Positions 1,007 to 18,737 of a stretch of 52,763 nucleotides of DNA are shown piece after piece. The DNA comes from Kofleriaceae bacterium. Its GTDB lineage: Bacteria; Myxococcota_A; Polyangia; Haliangiales; Haliangiaceae. Numbering within the stretch: position 1 is the stretch's first letter; each line of letters opens with the position of its first letter. Position numbers and translations under genes: made by a program. The notes below the pieces were generated by a model. The model was not told the DNA's origin and did not search any database. It was given only the letters and a program-made list of their open reading frames with translations. The stretch is from the NCBI GenBank assembly GCA_964203225.1, contig CAXNMK010000002.1:801664-854426 (forward strand), in the 5' to 3' direction.

Positions 1007-2416
1007 CTACTCGGAGCACGCCTTGCGGCGCGCCGGCAGGACCTTGCCCGGGTTGAGCAGGCCGGAGGGATCCCACATCGACTTCCAGCGGCGCTGCCAC
1101 TCGAGGACGGCCTCGGCCTGTTCCATGGGCATGAAGTCGCGCTTGCTGGTCCCGATGCCGTGCTCGCCCGACAGGGTGCCGCCGAGCGCGATGGTGTGCT
1201 CGAACAGGCGGCGGGCGGCGCCGAGCATGCGCGCGCGGACGGCGGGATCGTCGGGGTCGTCGTTGGACAACAGATTCACGTGGAGGTTGCCGTCGCCGGC
1301 GTGGCCGAACACGGCGGTGGCGATGCCGGTCTCGGCGGACACCTGGTCGACGCGGGCGAGCATCTCGACGATCCGGCCGCGCGGGACGCAGACGTCCTCG
1401 TTGACCTTCACGCGGTAGGCTTCCTTGAGGCACGACGAGATCAAGCGGCGGGCCTCCCACACGGCGCGGCGCTCGGCGGGTTCGGTGGCGGCGAGGACGT
1501 CGAGCGCGCCGAGTTCGTCGCAGCGCATGCCGACCTTCTCCATCTGCGCCTCGATGGTCTCCGGATCTCCGTCGACCTCGAGGAGGACAATCGCGCCAGC
1601 GTTCGCGGGGAACCGGTAGCGGGCCTTGGCGCGGACGTGGTCGATCGAGGCGCGATCGGCGAGCTCGAGGACGCGGGGGCGGAGGCCGCCGCGCAGGAGC
1701 GCATCGATCGCGGTGCCCGCAGTCGGGACGTCGGCGAACACGGCGAGGATCGTCGCGGCGGCGGGCGGGTTGGGCAGGAGCTTGAGCGTGAGCTCGGTGA
1801 TCACGCCGAACGTGCCCTCGGTGCCGACGAACCCGGCGACCAGGTCGTAGCCGGTGACGCCCTTGGCGGTGCGGCGGCCGACCCGGAGGACCTCACCACC
1901 CATCAGCGCGACCTCGAGGCCGAGCACGTACTCGCGGGTGACGCCGTACTTGAAGGCCCGCGGGCCGCCGGCGTTGGTGGCGGCGTTCCCTCCGATCGAG
2001 CAGTACTCGAGCGACGCCGGGTCGGGCGGGTAGAACAGGCCCTGGGCCTCGACCTCGGTCTGCAGGACCCCGGTGATCACGCCGGGCTCGACGACGCACA
2101 CCAGGTCGCGCGGATCGATCTCGCGGATCCGGGTCATCCGCTCCGTCGACAGCACCACGCCACCGGCGATCGGCAGCGCGCCGCCGCACATGCCGGAGCC
2201 GGCGCCACGCGGCGTGACAGGGACCTGCCGCTCGAGGCAGATCCGGAGCACCGCAGCCGCCTGCTCCGTGGACTCCACGAGTGCGGCGCACGCCGGCGGG
2301 AAGTACTCGGGCATCGGACTCTCGTCGCGCCCGTAGTCCTCGATCTTCTCGTGACCGGGACCGACGATCGCTGCGGCACCCAGCTCGCGCGTCAGGACCT
2401 CGACGATGTCTTGCAC
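1007..2416 (-). CDS. FAD-linked oxidase, glycolate oxidase subunit GlcD / D-lactate dehydrogenase family
   Basis: The 469 aa product has an FAD-binding PCMH-type N-terminus (PVTPRGAGSGMCGGALP). A GlcD-like C-terminal domain follows (HAGDGNLHVNLL...EHGIG). Confidence 0.85.
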   Translation of the reverse strand: MQDIVEVLTRELGAAAIVGPGHEKIEDYGRDESPMPEYFPPACAALVESTEQAAAVLRICLERQVPVTPRGAGSGMCGGALPIAGGVVLSTERMTRIREIDPRDLVCVVEPGVITGVLQTEVEAQGLFYPPDPASLEYCSIGGNAATNAGGPRAFKYGVTREYVLGLEVALMGGEVLRVGRRTAKGVTGYDLVAGFVGTEGTFGVITELTLKLLPNPPAAATILAVFADVPTAGTAIDALLRGGLRPRVLELADRASIDHVRAKARYRFPANAGAIVLLEVDGDPETIEAQMEKVGMRCDELGALDVLAATEPAERRAVWEARRLISSCLKEAYRVKVNEDVCVPRGRIVEMLARVDQVSAETGIATAVFGHAGDGNLHVNLLSNDDPDDPAVRARMLGAARRLFEHTIALGGTLSGEHGIGTSKRDFMPMEQAEAVLEWQRRWKSMWDPSGLLNPGKVLPARRKACSE

Positions 2417-2482
2417 GGACTATCTATAACGCCGACCCGCACCAGATGCTGGCGCGTGGACACGCTGCGACGGAGAACCGCG

Positions 2483-2884
2483 TCAGACCGAGAACGAGGA
2501 GCCGCAGCCGCAGGTCGACTTGACGTTCGGGTTGTTGAACTTGAACCCGGCGCCCTGCAGACCCTCGACATAGTCGATCTCGACGCCGACCAGGTACATC
2601 AGGCTCATCTCGTCGACGACGACCTTGACGCCAGCGATCTCGACGTCGCGATCGACCTCGGTGCCCTCGTCGAAGTAGAGGTCATAGGAGAACCCGGCGC
2701 AGCCGCCGCCGACGACACGGAGGCGGAGGGCCATGGTGGTCTCGATGCCCTCGGCGCCGCGGATCTCGTTGATCTTCAGGGCGGCGCCGGGGGTGATCAA
2801 GACCAGGGCCTCGGGCCCGCCCGGGTCGAGGACCGGCTGGGGGATGGTGGAGGGGGCGGTGGTGGACATCGCGAGATCAGACAT
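2483..2884 (-). CDS. Fe-S cluster insertion / A-type carrier protein (ErpA/IscA/SufA family)
   Basis: 133 aa. Carries the conserved Cys motifs GCAGFSY...FDE and a C-terminal CGCGSSF. Confidence 0.9.
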   Translation of the reverse strand: MSDLAMSTTAPSTIPQPVLDPGGPEALVLITPGAALKINEIRGAEGIETTMALRLRVVGGGCAGFSYDLYFDEGTEVDRDVEIAGVKVVVDEMSLMYLVGVEIDYVEGLQGAGFKFNNPNVKSTCGCGSSFSV

Positions 2885-2908
2885 GTACGGCTCCTGGTCG
2901 GGGACCTT

Positions 2909-2924
2909 ACCCTCACGTGAGGGT
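2909..2924. promoter_or_regulatory. Perfect 16 bp palindrome ACCCTCACGTGAGGGT. It lies in the divergent region between erpA-like (-) and the rhodanese-ThiF gene (+). An 18-mer CCTTACCCTCACGTGAGG is shared with the MerR/ISC promoter at 8254-8271 (on the opposite strand there)
   Basis: Read directly from the sequence at 2905-2924. It sits ~25 nt upstream of the erpA start (2884) and ~18 nt upstream of the 2942 GTG. Confidence 0.5.
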
Positions 2925-2941
2925 CATGGCAATCTCTCGCG

Positions 2942-4135
2942 GTGAGCTTTGACACGCTGCTCCGGGAGCTTCGCGGCGCGACGCCCGAGATCGCCCCTGC
3001 GACCCTCGCTGCGGAGCTCGGCGCCGGAGCTCCGCCGGTGGTCCTCGATGTCCGCGAGGCAGACGAGGTGGCCCTGGGCGCGATCCCGGGCGCCCGCCAT
3101 ATCCCGCGCGGGTCGCTGGAGCTGCGCGTCGAGAAGGAGGTGCCCGACCGGGCCGCGCCGGTGGTCGTCTATTGCCAGGGCGGGACCCGCTCGGTGCTGG
3201 CGACGCGCAGCCTGCGCGAGCTCGGCTACACGGCGGTGCGCTCCCTCGCGGGCGGGTTCACGGCGTGGAAGACCGCGGGCCTGGCCTGGGCGACGCCGCG
3301 CGGCCTGCGCGCCGAGCAGCTCGCGCGCTACTCGCGCCACACGCTCCTGCCCGAGGTCGGGCTCGCCGGGCAGCTGCGGTTGCTCGACGCCAGGGTGCTG
3401 TGCATCGGCGCGGGCGGGCTCGGCTCCCCGTCGAGCATGTACCTGGCCGCGGCCGGCGTCGGCACGCTCGGGATCGTCGACGACGACGTGGTCGATGCCT
3501 CGAACCTCCAGCGCCAGATCCTCCACGGCACCGAGCGGATCGGGATGGCCAAGGTCGACAGCGCCGAGGTCACGCTGCGCGGCCTCAACCCTGACGTGCG
3601 CGTGATCAAGCACCGCGCCCGGCTGACCACGGCGAACGCGCTCGAGTTGCTCGCGCCGTACGACGTCGTGATCGATGGGGCCGACAACTTCGCGACCCGC
3701 TACCTCGTCAACGATGTCGCGCTCCGCCTCGGCAAGCCGGTGATCCACGCCTCGATCTTCCGGTTCGAGGGCCAGCTCACCGTGTTCCCGGCCGGCGGTC
3801 GCCCCTGTTACCGGTGCCTGTACCCGTCGCCGCCGCCGGCCGAGGACGCCCCGTCGTGCGCGGAGGCCGGCGTGCTCGGGGTGCTGCCCGGCATCATGGG
3901 CGTGCTCCAGGCCACCGAGGCGGTCAAGCTCGTCCTCGGGCTGGGCGAGAGCCTGGCCGGCCGGCTGCTGGTCTACGACGCGCTCAAGACCCGGTTCCGC
4001 GAGCTCAAGCTCCGGCGGGACCCGGCGTGTCCCACCTGCGGTGACGGGGTGGACCGCGCGCAGATCCCGCTGATCGACTACGCCGCGTTCTGCGCAGGTG
4101 GTGGCGCCGGAGCGGGGGTCGCCGCGCCGGGCTGA
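2942..4135 (+). CDS. Rhodanese-domain / ThiF-MoeB (E1-like) sulfur-carrier adenylyltransferase fusion. The rhodanese domain is N-terminal
   Basis: N-terminal rhodanese with active-site Cys (VVVYCQGGTRS). A ThiF/MoeB Rossmann fold follows (VLCIGAGGLGSP) with two CxxC zinc motifs (CYRC, CPTC). GTG start. Confidence 0.85.
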   Translation: MSFDTLLRELRGATPEIAPATLAAELGAGAPPVVLDVREADEVALGAIPGARHIPRGSLELRVEKEVPDRAAPVVVYCQGGTRSVLATRSLRELGYTAVRSLAGGFTAWKTAGLAWATPRGLRAEQLARYSRHTLLPEVGLAGQLRLLDARVLCIGAGGLGSPSSMYLAAAGVGTLGIVDDDVVDASNLQRQILHGTERIGMAKVDSAEVTLRGLNPDVRVIKHRARLTTANALELLAPYDVVIDGADNFATRYLVNDVALRLGKPVIHASIFRFEGQLTVFPAGGRPCYRCLYPSPPPAEDAPSCAEAGVLGVLPGIMGVLQATEAVKLVLGLGESLAGRLLVYDALKTRFRELKLRRDPACPTCGDGVDRAQIPLIDYAAFCAGGGAGAGVAAPG

Positions 4136-4152
4136 TACACTATCGGCACCAG

Positions 4153-6113
<1,961 letters not shown>

Positions 6114-6156
6114 CTCGAGTGACCCAGGCTGGGGCTGCTCGGGGTATGCTGCGCGG

Positions 6157-7734
6157 ATGATCGTCGCCCTGATCGCCGCCGTCGTCATCGCGGTCCTCGC
6201 CGCGGTGTTCGCGATGCGTGCGGGCGCCGCCGAGGCGAGCCGGCAGACGCGCGCCCGCATCGAGGAGGCGCGAGCGGAGGCCACGGCCGGGATCAAGGCC
6301 GCGCAGCTCGAGGCGGTCGGGCGCCGGCGCGCGCTCGAGACCGAGGCGCGGGCCGAGGCGCTCGCCCTGCGCACCGAGGCCGATGCGCAGCTATCGGCGA
6401 AGGCGACCGCCGTGGACCGTCGCGCCGGGGCGCTCGGGCAGGCCGAGGCCGCGGTCGACAGCCTCGAGGATGCTCTCGAGCAGCGCGCGGCCGCCCTCGA
6501 CGGCGTGCACAAGGACATCCAGTCCCTGCGCGACCGCGTCGGTGGCCTCGAGGGCGATGCGCGGAAGAAGCTGGCGACCGCGCGCACCGAGCTCGAGCTG
6601 CGCGCCGGCGTCGGGGCCGCGGAGCTGATCGACCGGCTCGGGCGTGCGTGGATCGAGGACGCGCAGGCGCGCGCCGCCGCCGCGGTCCGCCAGGTCGACC
6701 AGACCGCTGCGGACCCAGCGCACGATCGCGAGGCCAAGCGCGTGCTCGAGATCGCCGCGACCCGCTACCACCACCACTACCTGACCGAGCGCGCGCAGAA
6801 CTTCCTGCGCCTCGGCCCCGACCTGGTCGGGCTGCTGCTCGATCAGGGCGGCGCGCTCCACGGTGCGCTCGAGCGGAATGCCGGCGTGCAACTCCTCGTC
6901 AACGACGAGAAGGACGCGATCCGCCTCGACGGGCTCGACGGCGTCGGCAAGGAGTTCGTCCGCCGGGCGATCAACCGCCTGATGAAGAAGCCCGAGTCGA
7001 TCGACGACGCTCGCAAGGATCCCGATGCGTGGGCGGCGCGCGGCAAGGACAATCTGATCCAGGAGATCCGCGCCCTCGGCAAGCGCGCGTTCCAGACGCT
7101 CGGCATCCCCAAGGCGCATCCGGAGATCGTCGAGCTTGTCGGCGCGCTCAACTTCCGCACCAGCTACACGCAGAACCAGTGGTGGCACGCCGTCGAGTCG
7201 TCGTACCTCGCCGGGATGATGGCGAGCGAGCTCGGGCTCGACGAGCGGCTCGCGCGGCGCGCCACGCTGATGCACGACATCGGCAAGGCGCTGACCCACA
7301 AGATCGAGGGGTCGCATGCGGTGATCGGCGCGGACATCGCGCGGCGCGTGGGTGAGTCCGAGCTGGTCGCCAACGCGATCGGCGCGCACCACGCCGACGA
7401 ACCCTGCAACTCGGTGTACGCGCACCTGGTCGCCGCTGCCGACGCGATGAGCGGTGCACGTCCCGGCGCCCGCCGCGAGCTCGCCGAGGGGTTCACCGCG
7501 AAGGTCGAGGATCTCGAGCGGATCGGTGGCGCGCGCCGCGGCGTGGCGCATGCCCACGCGGTGCACGGGGGCCGCGAGCTCCGCGTGTACGTCCGCGAGC
7601 GCGAGGTCGATGACCTCACCGTCGTCGAGATGTCCTCCGAGATCGCTCACCAGATCGGTGAGGAGATGACGTTCCCCGGTCAGATCAAGGTCACGGTGAT
7701 CCGCGCCTTCGAGGCGTCGGCCACCGCGAACTGA
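6157..7734 (+). CDS. rny: Ribonuclease Y (N-terminal TM, coiled coil, KH-like domain, HD domain)
   Basis: N-terminal TM helix (MIVALIAAVVIAVLAAVF), an Ala/Glu/Arg-rich coiled coil, and an HD-domain motif (ATLMHDIGKALTHKIEGSHAVIGADIARR...AIGAHH). The track start at 6043 overlaps the upstream PEGA domain; the ATG at 6157 precedes the TM helix. Confidence 0.9.
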   Translation: MIVALIAAVVIAVLAAVFAMRAGAAEASRQTRARIEEARAEATAGIKAAQLEAVGRRRALETEARAEALALRTEADAQLSAKATAVDRRAGALGQAEAAVDSLEDALEQRAAALDGVHKDIQSLRDRVGGLEGDARKKLATARTELELRAGVGAAELIDRLGRAWIEDAQARAAAAVRQVDQTAADPAHDREAKRVLEIAATRYHHHYLTERAQNFLRLGPDLVGLLLDQGGALHGALERNAGVQLLVNDEKDAIRLDGLDGVGKEFVRRAINRLMKKPESIDDARKDPDAWAARGKDNLIQEIRALGKRAFQTLGIPKAHPEIVELVGALNFRTSYTQNQWWHAVESSYLAGMMASELGLDERLARRATLMHDIGKALTHKIEGSHAVIGADIARRVGESELVANAIGAHHADEPCNSVYAHLVAAADAMSGARPGARRELAEGFTAKVEDLERIGGARRGVAHAHAVHGGRELRVYVREREVDDLTVVEMSSEIAHQIGEEMTFPGQIKVTVIRAFEASATAN

Positions 7735-7811
7735 GAGACTGTGAAACAGTCTCGCGAACGGGGTGGGACCCCTGCGCGGCTTGCCGCGGAGGGCGGGGCG
7801 GAGCCCCGTGG
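7735..7811 (+). repeat. REP-like ~80 nt intergenic element, single copy. The hairpin GAGACTG-TGAAA-CAGTCTC starts one nt after the rny stop codon, followed by a GC-rich GGGGTGGGACCCCTGCGCGGCTTGCCGCGGAGGGCGGGGCGGAGCCCCGTGG module
   Basis: Same family as the 4-copy array at 25150-25485 and the inverted copy at 38192-38271. Read directly from the sequence. Confidence 0.7.
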
Positions 7812-8183
7812 CACTGACGCACGAGCGCCGACGACACCCGGATGCACCGCGCGTCAGTGCCCCGTGTCGACTCCTCGCTCGGTCCTGCGGCGGAGGGCGG
7901 GCCGATAGCGGCGTGGGACGGGGGGAGGGGCGGGCAGGCGACGGCTCGTGTGCTGCATTCTGCAATCGCAGCCACGCGTGAACTCGACGAGCGCGATCCC
8001 AAGGCGCCCCGCCCGATGGCGGCGCCCAAGAAGCACTGCAACCCGAGCGAGGCCGCCGAGCACCAGCCGTGGCGCGTGCGCAAGGACGCGGAGGGCGACC
8101 GGCACCGGACCATCCAGAGATCGGGGGCTGCCACGGTCGCGATCCCCGTAGGTTCAGCACCTTCCTGTTCGGGACCCAACTCC

Positions 8184-8279
8184 CACGTAAAGGTAAGGGT
8201 TCGGGATTGACAGCTCTCCGGGTGGCCCTCATAGTGCCCCTGTACACACCGAACCTCACGTGAGGGTAAGGGTTGTGGG
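8184..8279. promoter_or_regulatory. MerR/ISC promoter region. Two direct copies of CACGT(A/G)A(A/G)GGTAAGGGTT..GGG sit at 8184-8205 and 8257-8279. The second carries the palindrome CCTCACGTGAGG. A candidate sigma70 promoter TTGACA(8207-8212)-17 nt-CATAGT(8230-8235) lies between them
   Basis: Read directly from the sequence. The palindrome half is shared with the erpA site at 2909-2924. Confidence 0.45.
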
Positions 8280-8283
8280 CCGC

Positions 8284-8871
8284 ATGAAGGACCAGCCGGA
8301 AACCATCGACAAGCTGATGCGCGTCGGAGAGCTCGCGAAGGTGGTCGGCAAGACCGTCCGCGCGATGCACCTCTACGAAGAGCTGGGCCTGCTCGAGCCG
8401 CGGTCCCGCTCCGAGGGCGGATTCCGGATGTACGGCCCCGAGGCGGTCGACCGCATCCACTGGATCGTCAAGCTCCAGGCGATCGGGTTCACGCTCGCCG
8501 AGATCCAGGGGTTCGTCAACGACTTCCAGGGCGCCGGCTCCGGCCGCGAGGCGACCACGCGCGTGCGCAACCTGTTCATGGAGAAGCAGGCGCAGATCCG
8601 CGATCAGATCATCCAGCTCCAGGTGATCGAGACCGACCTCAACGAGGCCGTCGCCTACCTCGACTCGTGCTCGAGCTGTGCAGACGAGTACGCCCCGGCG
8701 GCGTGCCGCAGCTGCGACCACAATGGCCACCACGTCGGCGAGGCGCCGCCCCTGTTCGCGGGGCTGTCGCGGCGTTCGGCCGACGAGCCGCTTGCACGTC
8801 CGTCCGAGCGCGCATTCGACGTGCCCGTCACCGTCCTCTCCTCATCCCTGACCCGGCGAGAAGGAATCTAA
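8284..8871 (+). CDS. MerR-family transcriptional regulator with a C-terminal Cys-rich motif ([22 protein letters not shown])
   Basis: N-terminal MerR HTH ([28 protein letters not shown]...GFRMY), a coiled-coil dimerisation helix, then four Cys and three His. The track ORF starts at a GTG (8260) inside the palindrome. The ATG at 8284 is the first start codon clear of the palindrome. It ends at TAA 8869-8871, 1 nt before the iscS ATG. Confidence 0.8.
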
Positions 8872-8872
8872 G

Positions 8873-10138
8873 ATGTCCGTTGCTACCAAGCCGACTATTC
8901 ACGCGCCCCTCCCCGAGGGCGTGACCCTGCCGATCTTCATGGACAACCACTCGACGACCGCGGTCGATCTCCGGGTCGTCCAGGCCATGCTGCCGTTCTT
9001 CACGGAGCACTACGGCAACGCGGCGAGCCGCAACCACTCGTTCGGGTGGACCGCCGAGGCGGCCGTCGAGAACGCGCGCACCCAGGTCGCCGCGCTGATC
9101 GGCGGCGAGGGCAAGGAGATCGTGTTCACGTCCGGCGCGACCGAGGCCAACAACCTCGCGATCAAGGGCGCCGCCAGCTTCCTCAGGAAGCAGGGCAACC
9201 ACATCATCACCGTCGAGACCGAGCACAAGGCGGTGCTCGACACCTGCAAGCGCCTCGAGCGCGATGGCTACGAGGTCACGTACCTGACGCCGGCCAAGGA
9301 CGGCCTGGTCACCCCCGAGCAGGTCGTCGCCGCGATGACCGACAAGACGATCATCGTCTCGATCATGCTCGCCAACAACGAGATCGGCGTGATCCAGCCG
9401 TTCGAGGCGATCGGCGCGGCGATCAAGGCGCGCAACCCGAAGTGCCTGTTCCACACCGACGGCGTCCAGGCCGTCGGCAAGATCCCGTTCGACGTCGACA
9501 AGGCCCGCGTCGACCTGGTGTCGATGACGGCGCACAAGATGTACGGTCCCAAGGGCATCGGCGCGCTGTGGGTGCGCCGCAAGCCGCGCGTCCGCATCGA
9601 CCCGATCCTCGACGGTGGTGGCCACGAGCGCGGCATGCGCTCGGGCACCCTGCCGGTGCCGATGATCGTTGGCTTCGGCAAGGCGTGCGAGATCGCCAAG
9701 GCCGAGATGGAGGACGATGCGGTCCGCATCGGCGCGCTGCGCGAGCGGCTGCACCGCGGCATCACCGCGAAGCTGTCCGAGACGTACGTCAACGGCTCGA
9801 TGGAGCACCGGCTCCCGGGCAACCTCAACATCTCGTTCGCGTTCGTCGAGGGCGAGAGCCTGCTGATGGCGCTCAAGGACCTCGCGGTGTCGTCGGGCTC
9901 GGCCTGCACGTCCGCGTCCCTCGAGCCGAGCTACGTGCTGCGCGCCCTCGGCGTCGGCGACGAGCTCGCGCACACCTCGATCCGGTTCGGGCTCGGTCGG
10001 TTCAACACCGAGGCCGAGGTCGACTACGTGATCGACCTGGTCGTGACCTCGGTCGAGCGCCTCCGCACGCTGTCCCCGCTGTGGGAGATGCACCAGGAGG
10101 GCATCGACATCAACTCCATCCAGTGGACCCCGCACTGA
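8873..10138 (+). CDS. iscS: Cysteine desulfurase IscS (PLP-dependent)
   Basis: 421 aa. PLP-lysine motif [16 protein letters not shown]. Active-site Cys loop [30 protein letters not shown] at 8861-8866. Confidence 0.95.
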
Positions 10139-10208: not shown

Positions 10209-10601
10209 ATGGCGTATTCAGACAAGGTCATCGACCACTACGAGAACCCGCGCAACGTCGGCACCTTCAAGGCCGACGGCGTCGATGCGAGCGAGGTCGG
10301 CACAGGCCTCGTCGGTGCACCCGCGTGCGGCGACGTCATGCGCCTCGAGATCCGCGTCAAGGACGGCCTGATCGCCGACGCGAAGTTCAAGACGTTCGGC
10401 TGCGGCTCGGCGATCGCGTCGAGCTCGCTCGCGACCGAGATGATCAAGGGCATGAGCCTCGAGCAGGCCGCCCAGATCTCGAACACCCAGATCGTCGAGG
10501 AGCTCAACCTCCCGCCGGTCAAGATCCACTGCTCGGTCCTCGCCGAGGACGCCATCAAGGCGGCGATCGAGGACTACAAGAAGAAGCAGCAGTCCAAGTG
10601 A
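10209..10601 (+). CDS. iscU: Fe-S cluster assembly scaffold IscU
   Basis: 130 aa. Conserved [23 protein letters not shown] and [15 protein letters not shown] (LPPVK motif). Confidence 0.95.
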
Positions 10602-11008
10602 TGGACCAGGTGACGCCGATGTCAGCGACCAGCTCCAGCGCCCCTTCGGCTCCGGCCACCGCGCCGAAGACGATCTCCAAGAAGGAGGTCGAGATCACCG
10701 AGCATGCGGCGCAGGAGATCGCGCGTCAGCGCGACACGCGCGGCAATCCGGATTCGATGATCCGGATCGGCGTGCGTGGCGGTGGCTGCACGGGCTTCAC
10801 CTACGTGTTCGAGTGGTCCGAGCAGACCCGCGCGAGCGACAAGGTGTTCAGCGCGTTCGGGGTATCGATCGTCGTCGACCCGAAGAGCCTGGTCTACCTC
10901 GGCGGCATGCAGCTCGACTTCGTGCGCGGCATGATGGGTCACGGCTTCAAGTTCAACAACCCCAACGCCAAGGGGAGCTGTGGCTGTGGCGAGTCCGTCA
11001 ACTTCTAG
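10601..11008 (+). CDS. iscA: Fe-S cluster assembly protein IscA
   Basis: ATG at 10601 overlaps the iscU TGA (TGATG). GCTGFTY...FEW and a C-terminal [11 protein letters not shown]. Confidence 0.9.
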
Positions 11009-11517
11009 GAGCGACGCCGACGCGTTCGCGCTGCTCGGCCTCGCGCCGGCCTACGAGATCGACGTCGCGGCGCTCGAGCGCGCCTACTTCGAGCGCAGCC
11101 GTCGAGGTCCACCCGGACCGGTTCGCCACGGCGCCCGCGGCCGAGCGCGTGGTCGCGCTGACGAAGGCGCGCGCGCTCAACGATGCCTACCAGCTGCTCA
11201 AGAAGCCGGTGCCGCGCGCGGAGTATCTCCTGTCGCGCGCGGGCGTCACGATCGGGGCCAACGAGCGCCTCGATCCCACGTTCTTGATGGAGATCCTCGA
11301 GCTCCGCGAGGAGCTGGCCCTGGCCCGCCACGCCGGCCGGACCGACGAGGTTGCGGCGAAGCAGGCCGCGATGGTCACCCGCCGCCGCGCCGTCCTGGCC
11401 GAGCTGCCCGCGCTGTTCCACGCTGACGATCTGCCCGCCCTCAAGGAGCGCCTGATCGTGCTGCGCTACCTCGACCGCTACCTCGAAGAGTGCAACGCCG
11501 CACTCGACGACGAATAG
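10980..11517 (+). CDS. hscB: Co-chaperone HscB (J-domain). Apparent 1-nt frameshift near 11100-11110
   Basis: J-domain helix I ([27 protein letters not shown]) is in the frame of ORF 10980..11426. The HPD motif and the rest ([44 protein letters not shown]...[15 protein letters not shown]) are in the frame of ORF 10813..11517. Both were verified by codon reading of 11041-11520. Confidence 0.65.
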
Positions 11518-11562: not shown

Positions 11563-13479
<1,917 letters not shown>

Positions 13480-13483
13480 ACCC

Positions 13484-13870
13484 ATGCCGAAGATCACGTT
13501 CGTCAACCCGCACGGCAAGGGCTCGGCCGGCCCTCTGTCGATCGACTGCAAGCGCGGCATCACCCTGCTCGACGCCGCCGAGGAGTGCGGCGCGCGCGTG
13601 GGGCACGCCTGCGGCGGCAACCTCGCGTGCTCGACCTGCCACGTCTACGTGAGCGAGGGGCTCGACTCCCTCGGCGACATCTCCGACAAGGAGAACGACA
13701 TCATGGACAAGGCGTTCGACGTGCGCGCCGAGTCCCGGCTCGGCTGCCAGGCTCCGGTCGGTGAGGTCGACCTCGTTGTCGAGATCTCGGACGAGAGCCT
13801 GCGTGCCTGGCTCGACGAGAACCCCGACGAGCGGAAGAAGCTCGCGGCCGCCCGCGACGCCGCGGGCTGA
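13484..13870 (+). CDS. fdx: ISC-type [2Fe-2S] ferredoxin (adrenodoxin family) Fdx
   Basis: 128 aa. Cys ligands CGGNLACSTCH...C. Begins 4 nt after the hscA stop. Confidence 0.9.
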   Translation: MPKITFVNPHGKGSAGPLSIDCKRGITLLDAAEECGARVGHACGGNLACSTCHVYVSEGLDSLGDISDKENDIMDKAFDVRAESRLGCQAPVGEVDLVVEISDESLRAWLDENPDERKKLAAARDAAG

Positions 13871-14677: not shown

Positions 14678-15466
14678 CTACTCGACGAGCTTGAGGTGGC
14701 CGCGCTTGCGCGGCTCCTCGTCCTTGACGACGACCGGCGGCCGCGGCACCACGGTGGGCGGGGCGGGCGCCAGATCGGGACCCGCAGCCTCGCCGCTGGC
14801 GGTGAGCACGTCCTCGGGGACGTCCTCCGGCCACACCGTGCCGCGCTGCTCGCCCTCGACCATCGCCGCGTACACCCCGGTCCACGGCAGGACCACGCGG
14901 AACGGCACGCCGCCGAACGTGAGCGTGCCGCCGATCGCCTCGTCATCCACGGACAGGTCCGTGATCGGCGGCGACAGGCTGTAGCCGAACCGGAGCACCA
15001 GGCTGGCGTCGTCGCGGAACCGGGCGGGGACGCTGACCTCGGCGCGGCGGGCGTCGACGTGCACGAGCACCGGCCCGCGCTCGAGCAGCGCCTCGACGGT
15101 CTTGCGCTTGTCCGGGGCACTCGCGTCGTCATCGTCGACGAGTGCGTCGATCGACGCGACGTCCTGCGGCGGCTCGCCGACCATGGCGACGAACTCGTCC
15201 TCGGCCATCAGGCCGGCGTCGACGGCGTCGCGGAGGATGCCCTCGGGGCGGTCACCGGCGGCCGCGGTCACGCGCTCGACCGTGCGCTCGCAGCGCGCCG
15301 CGTGGCGCAGCACGGCGCCGTGGGCGGCGAGGGCGCTGTGACCGCCACTGCGCCAGCGCGCGAGCGCGCGCTCGACATCCACCAGCGAGGTCGACACGCG
15401 GTGCTCGATCAGCGCGGTCACGACCGCCTGTAGCCGGGCCAGGGTCTTCGGATCACGCTCGAGCAT
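14678..15466 (-). CDS. SspB-domain protein (ClpXP adaptor-like) with an N-terminal extension
   Basis: The C-terminal half resembles stringent starvation protein B (LVHVDARRAEVSVPARFRDD...FGGVPFRVVLPWTGVYAAMVEGEQ). It ends with a ClpX-binding-like tail RGHLKLVE. Confidence 0.55.
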   Translation of the reverse strand: MLERDPKTLARLQAVVTALIEHRVSTSLVDVERALARWRSGGHSALAAHGAVLRHAARCERTVERVTAAAGDRPEGILRDAVDAGLMAEDEFVAMVGEPPQDVASIDALVDDDDASAPDKRKTVEALLERGPVLVHVDARRAEVSVPARFRDDASLVLRFGYSLSPPITDLSVDDEAIGGTLTFGGVPFRVVLPWTGVYAAMVEGEQRGTVWPEDVPEDVLTASGEAAGPDLAPAPPTVVPRPPVVVKDEEPRKRGHLKLVE

Positions 15467-17012: not shown

Positions 17013-17621
17013 ATGATTACGCGGTACTCCGATTCCAAGCTCCCCACGGCGAACGGGGAGTTCCGGGTCGTGGTGTACCGGACGGGTGGGGAGGCTGGCC
17101 CGGGCGGCACGGCGGTCGGGACCGGCCCGGAGGAGCACGTGGCGATGGTGCTCGGCGACGTCGCCGGCGACGCGGTGCTGACCCGGGTCCACTCCTCGTG
17201 CTTCACCGGCGAGGTCCTCGGCAGCCTGCGCTGCGACTGCCGCGCGCAGCTCGACGCCGCGCTCGCGCGGATCGGCGTGGAGGGCCGCGGTGTGGTCGTC
17301 TACCTCGTGCAGGAGGGCCGCGGCATCGGCCTTGGCAACAAGGTCCGCGCGTACCAGCTCCAGGACGACGGCGCCGACACCGTGGACGCCAACCTCGCGC
17401 TCGGGTTCGACGCCGACCACCGGACCTACGACCTCGCCGCCAGCATCCTTCGCGATCTCGGTGCCACGAGCGTCCGCCTGATGACCAACAACCCCGACAA
17501 GATCGCCGGCCTCGAGAGCGCCGGCGTCATCGTCACCGCGGAGCCCCACTGGGTCGCCGCGACCGAGCACAGCGCCAGCTACCTCGACGTCAAGAAGTCC
17601 AAGCTCGGGCACATCGCCTAG
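17013..17621 (+). CDS. ribA: GTP cyclohydrolase II
   Basis: Zinc Cys triad CFTGEVLGSLRCDCRAQ. Also YLVQEGRGIGLGNKVRAYQLQDDGADTVDAN. Confidence 0.9.
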   Translation: MITRYSDSKLPTANGEFRVVVYRTGGEAGPGGTAVGTGPEEHVAMVLGDVAGDAVLTRVHSSCFTGEVLGSLRCDCRAQLDAALARIGVEGRGVVVYLVQEGRGIGLGNKVRAYQLQDDGADTVDANLALGFDADHRTYDLAASILRDLGATSVRLMTNNPDKIAGLESAGVIVTAEPHWVAATEHSASYLDVKKSKLGHIA

Positions 17622-17645
17622 GCTGCCAGCAGGAGTCCCGTTTCC

Positions 17646-18737
<1,092 letters not shown>

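Follow-up and report, generated by a model that had tools for sequence, protein, structure and literature searches.

An isc operon headed by a MerR-family gene

We analyzed a 52,763-nt stretch of DNA from a Kofleriaceae bacterium of the order Haliangiales (contig CAXNMK010000002.1 of assembly GCA_964203225.1, positions 801,664 to 854,426 of the forward strand), hereafter called the window, in which the isc operon for iron-sulfur (Fe-S) cluster biogenesis begins with a gene for a cysteine-rich protein of the MerR family. The window has a G+C content of approximately 72%, and its closest relatives are metagenome-assembled genomes labelled Kofleriaceae, Haliangiales or Myxococcales. The regulator gene (8284–8871, plus strand; ATG at 8284, TAA ending at 8871) codes for 195 amino acid residues, which include Pfam-recognized MerR domains and a Cx2C-x8-Cx2C motif. 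The gap between its stop codon and the start of iscS at 8873 is 1 nt, in agreement with an earlier note made on this DNA from its letters alone.

The genes that follow on the plus strand are iscS, coding for cysteine desulfurase (8873–10138; Aminotran_5, E = 1e-82), iscU (10209–10601; NifU_N, E = 3.5e-51), iscA, coding for an A-type carrier (10619–11008, with the start codon taken from the translation; Fe-S_biosyn), hscB (10980–11517, with a frame broken near 11103; HSCB_C), hscA (11563–13479; NCBIfam HscA, 779 bits, above the cut-off), and fdx, coding for an ISC-type [2Fe-2S] ferredoxin (13484–13870). The best NCBIfam match of the ferredoxin is fdx_isc (TIGR02007), at 99.3 bits and thus below the 132.1-bit cut-off; relatives have a Pfam Fer2 domain at the same operon position. 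A second pair of genes belongs to the system described below. An erpA-like gene for an A-type Fe-S carrier (2483–2884, minus strand) scored above the TIGR00049 cut-off and slightly below that of the ErpA equivalog (113.7 vs 117 bits). It is divergent, across a 57-bp gap, from a gene for a rhodanese-ThiF/MoeB-type adenylyltransferase-sulfurtransferase (2942–4135, plus strand), which has an N-terminal Pfam Rhodanese domain and a ThiF domain and scored 554.8 bits, above the cut-off, against NCBIfam PRK08762. The identities that the earlier note had assigned to the isc genes, erpA and the rhodanese-ThiF gene were all borne out by these Pfam or NCBIfam matches.

For comparison, we collected 80 loci (967 kb in total) from different species that encode relatives of the regulator with 68–85% identity, and inspected approximately 10 kb of DNA surrounding each homologue. 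Pfam scans of the window, for which candidate open reading frames (ORFs) were chosen largely on codon-position GC, revealed no Rrf2 gene, and tblastn searches of the window and the 80 related loci with E. coli IscR gave no match better than E = 2.9. A nearby Rrf2/IscR protein was rejected as a competing regulator on these grounds, and the statement of the earlier note that no such gene precedes isc held for the related loci as well as for the window.

Fold and cysteine motif of the regulator

The regulator passed the Pfam cut-offs for PF13411 (MerR_1; 49.5 bits, cut-off 21.6), PF09278 (MerR-DNA-bind; 38.9 bits, cut-off 25.4) and PF00376 (MerR; 29.7 bits, cut-off 28.2). MerR domains were its only Pfam domains, and it does not have the Rrf2 fold with Cys3(His/Asp) ligands. 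In an AlphaFold2 (AF2) monomer model with a mean predicted local distance difference test (pLDDT) score of 76, a confident winged helix-turn-helix (wHTH) is accompanied by a long helix spanning residues 87–129 with pLDDT above 90. As far as a monomer model can tell, the protein would thus have the architecture of the MerR family, in which a long antiparallel coiled-coil dimerization helix precedes a C-terminal effector region. The best Foldseek matches were CueR, MtaN, NmlR and CadR (probability 1.00), and by sequence, the closest solved structures were a MerR-family 'regulatory protein' of 132 aa (4ua1), followed by E. coli CueR. C129, at the end of the long helix, aligns with Cys112 of CueR, the first copper ligand, and is the only one of the motif cysteines to align. 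No curated NCBIfam equivalog among CueR, MerR, ZntR, CadR, SoxR and HspR claims the protein: the scores were 66.7, 62.9, 53.6, 56.5, 38.2 and 24.7 bits, far below the respective cut-offs of 147.4, 150.85, 167.95, 151.45, 116.9 and 105 bits. Related genes are annotated as 'copper efflux regulator' in their source records.

The cysteine motif reads C129-x2-C132-x8-C141-x2-C144-x-H146-x2-H149-H150; its codons occupy 8668–8733 on the plus strand, directly after the dimerization helix, and the Cys4(His) loop is a candidate sensor. The earlier note had recognized this cluster with slightly different spacings (x9 between the cysteine pairs and H-x3-HH at the end). C129, C132, C141, C144, H146 and H149 were invariant among 22 orthologues, and the four cysteines were also invariant in two sets of distant representatives (59 and 26 sequences), so the conservation that the note had called for was found. 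Its inclusion of histidines in the cluster is valid for the orthologues and not for the family: the motif histidines are confined to a Kofleria-like clade, and conservation across the 59 and 26 diverse members is limited to the four cysteines, a Pro-x-Leu a few residues further on, and the DNA-binding core.

At the C-terminus, Kofleria-like orthologues share the tail FDVPVTVL(Y/F)REGNN, from which the window protein (8809–8871) differs and which is missing from the wider family. The codons of REG in this tail also serve as the Shine-Dalgarno sequence of iscS (GAAGGA). One might speculate that the tripeptide L-Y/F-R recalls the LYR motif recognized by eukaryotic HSC20.

A conserved 22-bp operator

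The region upstream of the regulator gene was readable in 72 of the 80 related loci, and all 72 exhibited the same architecture: a 23-nt element, 5 bp, a near-consensus TTGACA-N17-CATAGT promoter, and a second copy of the element. Conservation was restricted to the elements and the promoter hexamers, and the sequence between these blocks was unconserved. Column counts define the element as a 22-bp imperfect inverted repeat, AACCTyACGTa|tACGTrAGGTT, with the dyad axis between positions 12 and 13. Near-perfect versions, such as ATCCTCACGTATACGTGAGGGTT and ACCCTAACGCATACGTAAGGGTT in Chondromyces crocatus, occur in distant relatives.

In the window, operator 1 (ACTCCCACGTAAAGGTAAGGGTT, 8179–8201, plus strand) ends 5 bp upstream of the -35 hexamer and scored 35.2 bits with the position weight matrix (PWM) described below; its counterpart was present in all 72 related promoters, centred 13–16 bp before the -35 hexamer. 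Operator 2 (AACCTCACGTGAGGGTAAGGGTT, 8252–8274, plus strand; 35.1 bits) lies in the predicted early transcribed region, centred at approximately +21. It was likewise present in all 72 loci, and in 68 of these its centre is 27–29 bp after the -10 hexamer. Operator 3 (ACCCTCACGTGAGGGTAAGGTCC, 2902–2924, minus strand; 21.7 bits) is located between erpA and the rhodanese-ThiF gene.

The earlier note had read these elements as two direct copies of a short sequence, the second containing a perfect palindrome. The copies are real: CACGTnAnGGTAAGG occurs directly repeated at 8184 and 8257 and a third time on the minus strand at 2905–2919, and its 4 matches compare with 0.38 expected, a number that no shuffled sequence reached. 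What they mark, though, is two separate operators flanking the promoter. The palindrome CCTCACGTGAGG is also where it had been placed, within operator 2 (8254–8265); it occurs exactly twice (at 2911 and 8254) vs 0.25 expected, and two or more occurrences were obtained in 1 of 100 shuffles. The identical 18-mer noted at the regulator promoter and between erpA and the rhodanese-ThiF gene was found as well, with ACCCTCACGTGAGGGT located at 2909–2924 in the 57-bp gap. As a functional unit, however, the palindrome fails. The central six bases of the window element are GTGAGG, which gives rise to an overlapping perfect palindrome of 12 bp whose centre is displaced 3 bp leftward from the conserved axis, whereas other species have GTAAAC, GTACGC or other bases at this position. 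Because these six bases are free to vary and the arms are not, and no co-variation is seen in the left arm, the 12-bp palindrome is a by-product. The perfect palindrome of 12 or 16 bp was rejected as the operator on the evidence of 72 promoters and nine distant loci, across which the conserved dyad is 3 bp to the right.

Promoter geometry and the sign of regulation

The predicted sigma-70-type promoter of the operon, Pisc (8207–8235, plus strand), consists of TTGACA (8207–8212), a 17-bp spacer and CATAGT (8230–8235). A consensus scan gave 10 of 12 matches, with 0.0 expected from shuffled sequences, and the spacer was 17 bp in 65 of 72 related loci. Operator 2 would cover roughly +10 to +32 of the predicted transcript. 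The two operators are separated, centre to centre, by 71–73 bp in 66 of 72 loci, which corresponds to seven helical turns. Operator 2 keeps a constant distance from the -10 hexamer (standard deviation 1.4 bp) but not from the start codon (2–30 nt), which speaks for a function in transcription and not in translation. In distant loci, the operator is mostly found directly after or overlapping the -10 hexamer of a TTGACA-N17 promoter; in two of them (L084 and L091) it abuts the -35 hexamer instead, and a second, weaker match lies downstream.

The predicted erpA promoter, PerpA (2904–2932, minus strand), comprises TTGCCA (2927–2932), a 17-bp spacer and TAAGGT (2904–2909), the latter being the right arm of operator 3. 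The arrangement TTGCCN-N17-TAAGGT is common to 27 loci, with a 17-bp spacer in all 27. In 12 of these, the ATG of erpA lies 7–8 nt after TAAGGT and a leaderless mRNA is predicted; this spacing supports the assignment of the -10 hexamer. The window differs from these relatives in that its erpA has a leader of approximately 20 nt with an AGGAG ribosome-binding site (2884–2909). The start codon of the rhodanese-ThiF gene is 18 nt from operator 3, and this single operator may control both divergent genes.

A canonical MerR operator is centred in a 19–20-bp spacer, where the protein acts by DNA distortion. Neither Pisc nor PerpA, as predicted, has this arrangement, and canonical MerR activation was rejected in view of the 17-bp spacers and the operators outside them. 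Since the operators lie outside the spacer or over the -10 hexamer and both spacers have the optimal 17 bp, we consider that the regulator probably acts by repression, to the extent that the predicted promoters are correct.

Specificity of the operator and extent of the regulon

We trained a PWM on 142 sites, all from species other than that of the window. In the window it matched only the three operators (35.2, 35.1 and 21.7 bits), compared with a maximum of 13.9 bits in 20 shuffles. In the 967 kb of related loci, matches of at least 14 bits were confined to Pisc and to the intergenic region between erpA and the rhodanese-ThiF gene; this region had a match in 29 of the 31 loci containing it. 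Within the window, no site was found upstream of ribA-apbC (17013–18737) or of a rubrerythrin/DUF3501 gene pair. Further regulon members were rejected for the window and the 80 loci, as the PWM matched nowhere else. In nine distant loci, matches occurred solely upstream of the regulator gene (9/9). The regulator gene hence has the hallmark of an autoregulated operon leader, a conserved site at its own operon promoter, in all 72 related and all nine distant loci, as judged from the predicted sites.

We also scanned a public metagenome collection for exact matches to AMCCTYACGTNNNSGTRAGGKT, a pattern that left out erpA-type sites, which end in C or G, not T. At least 120 stretches with at least 121 sites were obtained. 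Among the matches listed, 77 of 121 sites (64%) precede a gene of the regulator's subfamily by no more than 400 nt, and 54 of these 77 genes encode proteins only 28–52% identical to the window protein. That so many of the listed matches stand in front of subfamily genes suggests autoregulation and a small regulon, and constitutes strong circumstantial evidence, at the sequence level, that the protein recognizes the motif. The earlier proposal of a small Fe-S/sulfur regulon under a cysteine-rich MerR protein in place of IscR agrees with these data: the adjacency and the motif at two promoters are conserved, and the 967 kb are otherwise free of sites.

The other 44 listed sites are heterogeneous, and many are on contigs of 30–50% GC. 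Only one neighbour family, an MFS-like transporter recognized by eye from translations, appears on as many as three contigs, and no Fe-S gene was found among the neighbours that recur between contigs at these 44 sites. On the three high-GC contigs in question (L145, L148 and L150), a match to the operator consensus lies upstream of or beside the transporter gene, directly upstream in L145 (1590–1620), and no regulator homologue is present within 1.5 kb. These transporter-linked sites may be targets of another MerR paralogue or may have arisen by chance.

Distribution and linkage to iscS

An exhaustive profile search yielded 104 clusters (50% identity) with E-values below 1e-30, and CxxC-Xn-CxxC was present in 88 of the best 150 representatives. 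A second search gave 2155 proteins at E = 1e-10 or better. Named members are from Chondromyces crocatus, C. apiculatus, Polyangiaceae and Sandaracinaceae. Wherever a related locus extends downstream, iscS directly follows the regulator gene, and the same was true of all nine distant representatives, usually with iscU-iscA-hscB-hscA-fdx behind it; one member of the distant set is the complete C. crocatus Cm c5 genome (CP012159.1, at about 2.19 Mb). Among the listed metagenome matches on contigs with enough downstream sequence, iscS is the next gene in 46 of 50 cases (41 by an automatic test and 5 from coordinates). Linkage of the cysteine-rich MerR protein to iscS in relatives, which the earlier note had suggested profiling, was seen in almost all members examined. 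On one metagenome contig (L108, Ga0070689_100044968), a MerR homologue with an operator is directly followed by an A-type carrier gene (ErpA/IscA-like) instead of iscS.

From these sequence comparisons, isc operons of Polyangia-type Myxococcota (Kofleriaceae, Polyangiaceae, Sandaracinaceae and Chondromyces) start with the regulator gene, and the hallmark of the subfamily is Cx2C-X(8-12)-Cx2C in the position that the metal- or cluster-binding loop occupies in CueR, ZntR and SoxR.

Proposed mechanism and alternative explanations

We propose that a dimer of the regulator binds the 22-bp inverted repeat. At its own promoter, one operator would be occupied in the early transcribed region, an arrangement common to the whole family, and, in Kofleria-like genomes, a second one abutting the -35 hexamer seven helical turns away; at the divergent erpA/rhodanese-ThiF promoter, a single operator would cover the -10 hexamer of erpA. 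Repression by occlusion or by a roadblock would then result in autoregulation of merR-iscS-iscU-iscA-hscB-hscA-fdx. An Fe-S cluster supplied by the ISC machinery would be ligated by the four cysteines; with the cluster bound, the protein would repress, and shortage of or damage to the cluster would relieve repression, so that the feedback logic of IscR and RisR would be rebuilt on a MerR scaffold. The parts of this proposal differ in strength. The link between regulator, operator and regulon, in which binding is attributed to this protein from sequence patterns, is in our view very likely. Sensing of an Fe-S cluster by the Cys4 site has a chance approaching even; the cluster is favoured as the ligand because of the linkage to isc, the behaviour of known operon-encoded Fe-S regulators, and the precedent of SoxR. 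Taken as a whole, an autoregulating isc repressor on a MerR scaffold whose four cysteines ligate an Fe-S cluster is the explanation that we favour, by a modest preponderance of the evidence.

Several points speak against this explanation or parts of it. Compared with classical Fe-S motifs, Zn(Cys)4 or rubredoxin-like Fe sites are the more typical setting for paired CxxC sequences, the cysteine-rich tail gave no meaningful Pfam match (E up to 10), and the loop and tail were modelled by AF2 with low confidence. Most MerR proteins are activators that remain on the DNA in either state, and a repressor that releases it would be atypical; MerR-family repressors do have precedents in HspR, GlnR/TnrA and CarH/LitR, whose sites overlap or flank promoters. 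The promoter hexamers of Pisc and PerpA are predictions. Of the 121 listed metagenome matches, 44 are not beside the regulator, and an Rrf2 regulator or further operators may possibly reside elsewhere in these genomes.

The ligand is where an alternative has most to offer. With the same regulator, operator and regulon, the Cys4 site could hold a structural or sensory Zn(II) or a mononuclear Fe and work as a thiol-redox or metal-displacement switch, similar to RsrA, Hsp33 or the structural Zn sites of Fur/PerR, in which case isc would be derepressed by oxidative or thiol stress and not according to Fe-S occupancy. The spacing Cx2C-X8-12-Cx2C is typical of zinc knuckles, zinc ribbons and rubredoxin; by spacing, Zn(Cys)4 or mononuclear Fe with a thiol-redox switch is equally compatible with the motif. 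The loop is without similarity to known Fe-S motifs in Pfam, the motif histidines are not conserved family-wide, and oxidative stress is known to induce isc and suf (PMC9973013). On the other hand, the characterized regulators encoded in isc or suf operons (IscR, RisR and SufR) all sense through an Fe-S cluster of their own, SoxR holds a four-cysteine [2Fe-2S] cluster at the same loop position of the MerR scaffold, and an Fe-S site with the spacing CX2CX7CX2C exists in anamorsin/Dre2. We therefore regard a zinc or mononuclear iron site as unlikely, though a serious contender.

Far less probable is a classical heavy-metal sensor of the CueR/ZntR type, which would activate isc and erpA by DNA distortion upon poisoning with Cu, Zn, Cd or Co. 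Such a sensor would account for CueR, MerR and ZntR being the best NCBIfam and PDB sequence matches, for the annotation of relatives in the source records, and for the resemblance of the half-site ACCTTAC to the CueR box ACCTTCC; yet the scores fall far short of the equivalog cut-offs (66.7 vs 147.4 bits for CueR), both predicted promoters have optimal 17-bp spacers with the operators of Pisc outside the spacer, no efflux gene is adjacent in any locus examined, and the ligand pattern is unlike the two cysteines of CueR. The conserved palindrome could also belong to another factor, or operator 2 could be a hairpin in the 5′ untranslated region that masks the ribosome-binding site. The link between operator and regulator does rest on sequence comparison, and hairpin formation by the palindrome is possible, with the right arm (GAGG/AAGG) often placed 4–6 nt before the ATG. 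Operator 1, however, is upstream of the -35 hexamer and the erpA operator is over the -10 hexamer, so that neither would be in the corresponding mRNA; the two arms are conserved as sequences and not just as complements of each other, and the 64% of listed matches from an unbiased motif search that front this gene family argue against another factor. A hairpin or known RNA family in the leader was rejected on unexceptional folding energies (z-scores from +0.6 to -1.4) and the absence of an Rfam match. Together, these observations leave a different binding factor or an RNA element very improbable.

Comparison with known regulators

The proposed repressor resembles E. coli IscR in being encoded by the first isc gene, in its apparent autoregulation through palindromic sites at its own promoter, and in feedback from Fe-S supply. 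IscR also controls erpA in E. coli. The regulator differs from IscR in fold (a MerR wHTH and coiled coil vs the winged helix of Rrf2), in ligands (Cys4 vs Cys3His), and in operator sequence. In Myxococcus xanthus, RisR, a member of Rrf2 subgroup IS6, represses both the isc operon and the suf operon in its cluster-bound form, and its site at isc is an imperfect palindrome (TkGAC-N7-GTCCw) over the -10 hexamer and the start site (PMC9973013). RisR is from the same phylum as the window lineage and has a comparable operator position; it is, however, an Rrf2 protein that also controls suf, whereas the Polyangia-type lineage uses another family at the same position of the operon. MerR proteins are not mentioned in the study of RisR, which gives a broad survey of Rrf2 proteins (PMC9973013). 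From its sequence, the regulator would thus be functionally akin to IscR and RisR; it is a member of the MerR family and, with the promoters as predicted, departs from the canonical MerR promoter architecture.

SoxR shares the MerR scaffold with four cysteines in the loop after the dimerization helix and provides the precedent for an Fe-S cluster there, but its motif is CX2CXCX5C, to which the Cx2C-x8-Cx2C of the regulator does not conform, and it responds to redox-cycling agents and activates transcription from a site within an overlong spacer. CueR, ZntR and CadR are the closest in sequence and structure and bind a 21–22-bp dyad with ACC...GGT outer arms; unlike the regulator, which scored below their equivalog cut-offs, they are activators that work from 19–20-bp spacers and neighbour efflux genes. 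SufR of cyanobacteria and actinobacteria ([4Fe-4S]) likewise represents a non-Rrf2 family independently recruited to an Fe-S biogenesis operon as a cluster-sensing repressor, but its fold family is another one (COG2345) and its target is suf instead of isc. HspR, GlnR/TnrA and CarH/LitR use the MerR DNA-binding domain for plain repression at sites overlapping or flanking promoters, with other effector domains and regulons. A review of bacterial metal sensors from 2024 covers the unconventional MerR proteins CoaR, MliR and NimR, none of which is linked to isc (PMC11672702); MliR, from Bizionia, and NimR are unconventional metal sensors. We found no description of a MerR-type isc regulator in the full-text literature searched, which excludes most subscription journals and hence leaves room for earlier work, and the subfamily is apparently undescribed.

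Regulation of Fe-S biogenesis has so far been understood mainly through Rrf2 proteins (IscR and RisR) and SufR. A cluster-dependent MerR repressor that binds outside the spacer would be a third independently recruited class of Fe-S homeostasis regulator, a possibility that we put forward tentatively. Among MerR proteins it would be the second with an Fe-S cluster, SoxR being the first, and it would differ from SoxR in motif and in mode of DNA control and have a housekeeping role across Polyangia. The family is defined by sequence and comprises more than 2000 proteins and, at 50% identity, more than 100 clusters; its 22-bp operator is sharply defined, and the regulon predicted for it is minimal, consisting of isc, erpA and the rhodanese-ThiF sulfur-transfer enzyme. 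Its carriers are soil and marine myxobacteria that do not have the usual regulator at the head of the isc operon. The comparison suggests that a MerR scaffold can carry the same homeostatic loop and that proteins of this family can work in a repressor geometry. Direct tests of the hypothesis are feasible, as cultured carriers exist, such as C. crocatus Cm c5, and its confirmation would correct the widespread automatic label 'copper efflux regulator'.

Genomic surroundings

The two operator-bearing promoters are part of a strongly conserved gene order in the window (1007–7734) and the 80 related loci (L001–L080): a FAD-linked oxidase gene (minus strand), erpA (minus), the rhodanese-ThiF gene (plus), a Ser/Thr protein kinase gene (plus), an RNase Y-like HD protein gene (plus), and the regulator gene with isc. 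The kinase and HD protein genes are always situated between the two promoters in Kofleria-like genomes, and likewise on a contig of 48% GC from the distant set (L083). Between the RNase Y-like gene and operator 1, approximately 450 nt (7735–8178) have no convincing coding signal according to a GC3 filter and include a terminator-like hairpin at 8056–8038 on the minus strand; the length and content of this gap differ widely among species.

In hscB, the J-domain N-terminus is in a different frame from the part that begins with the HPDRF motif, while the gene is uninterrupted in relatives (FERSKELHPDRF). One extra base near 11103 would explain the frameshift, which could be an assembly error or a genuine lesion. 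Just 3′ of the isc operon is a gene for an SspB-like protein (ClpXP adaptor) in the window (14678–15466, minus strand) and also on the distant contig L083 (9949–10746). On another distant contig, L091, a frataxin/CyaY gene (767–1084) is located approximately 7 kb upstream of the MerR-isc operon, with no PWM match to the operator nearby.

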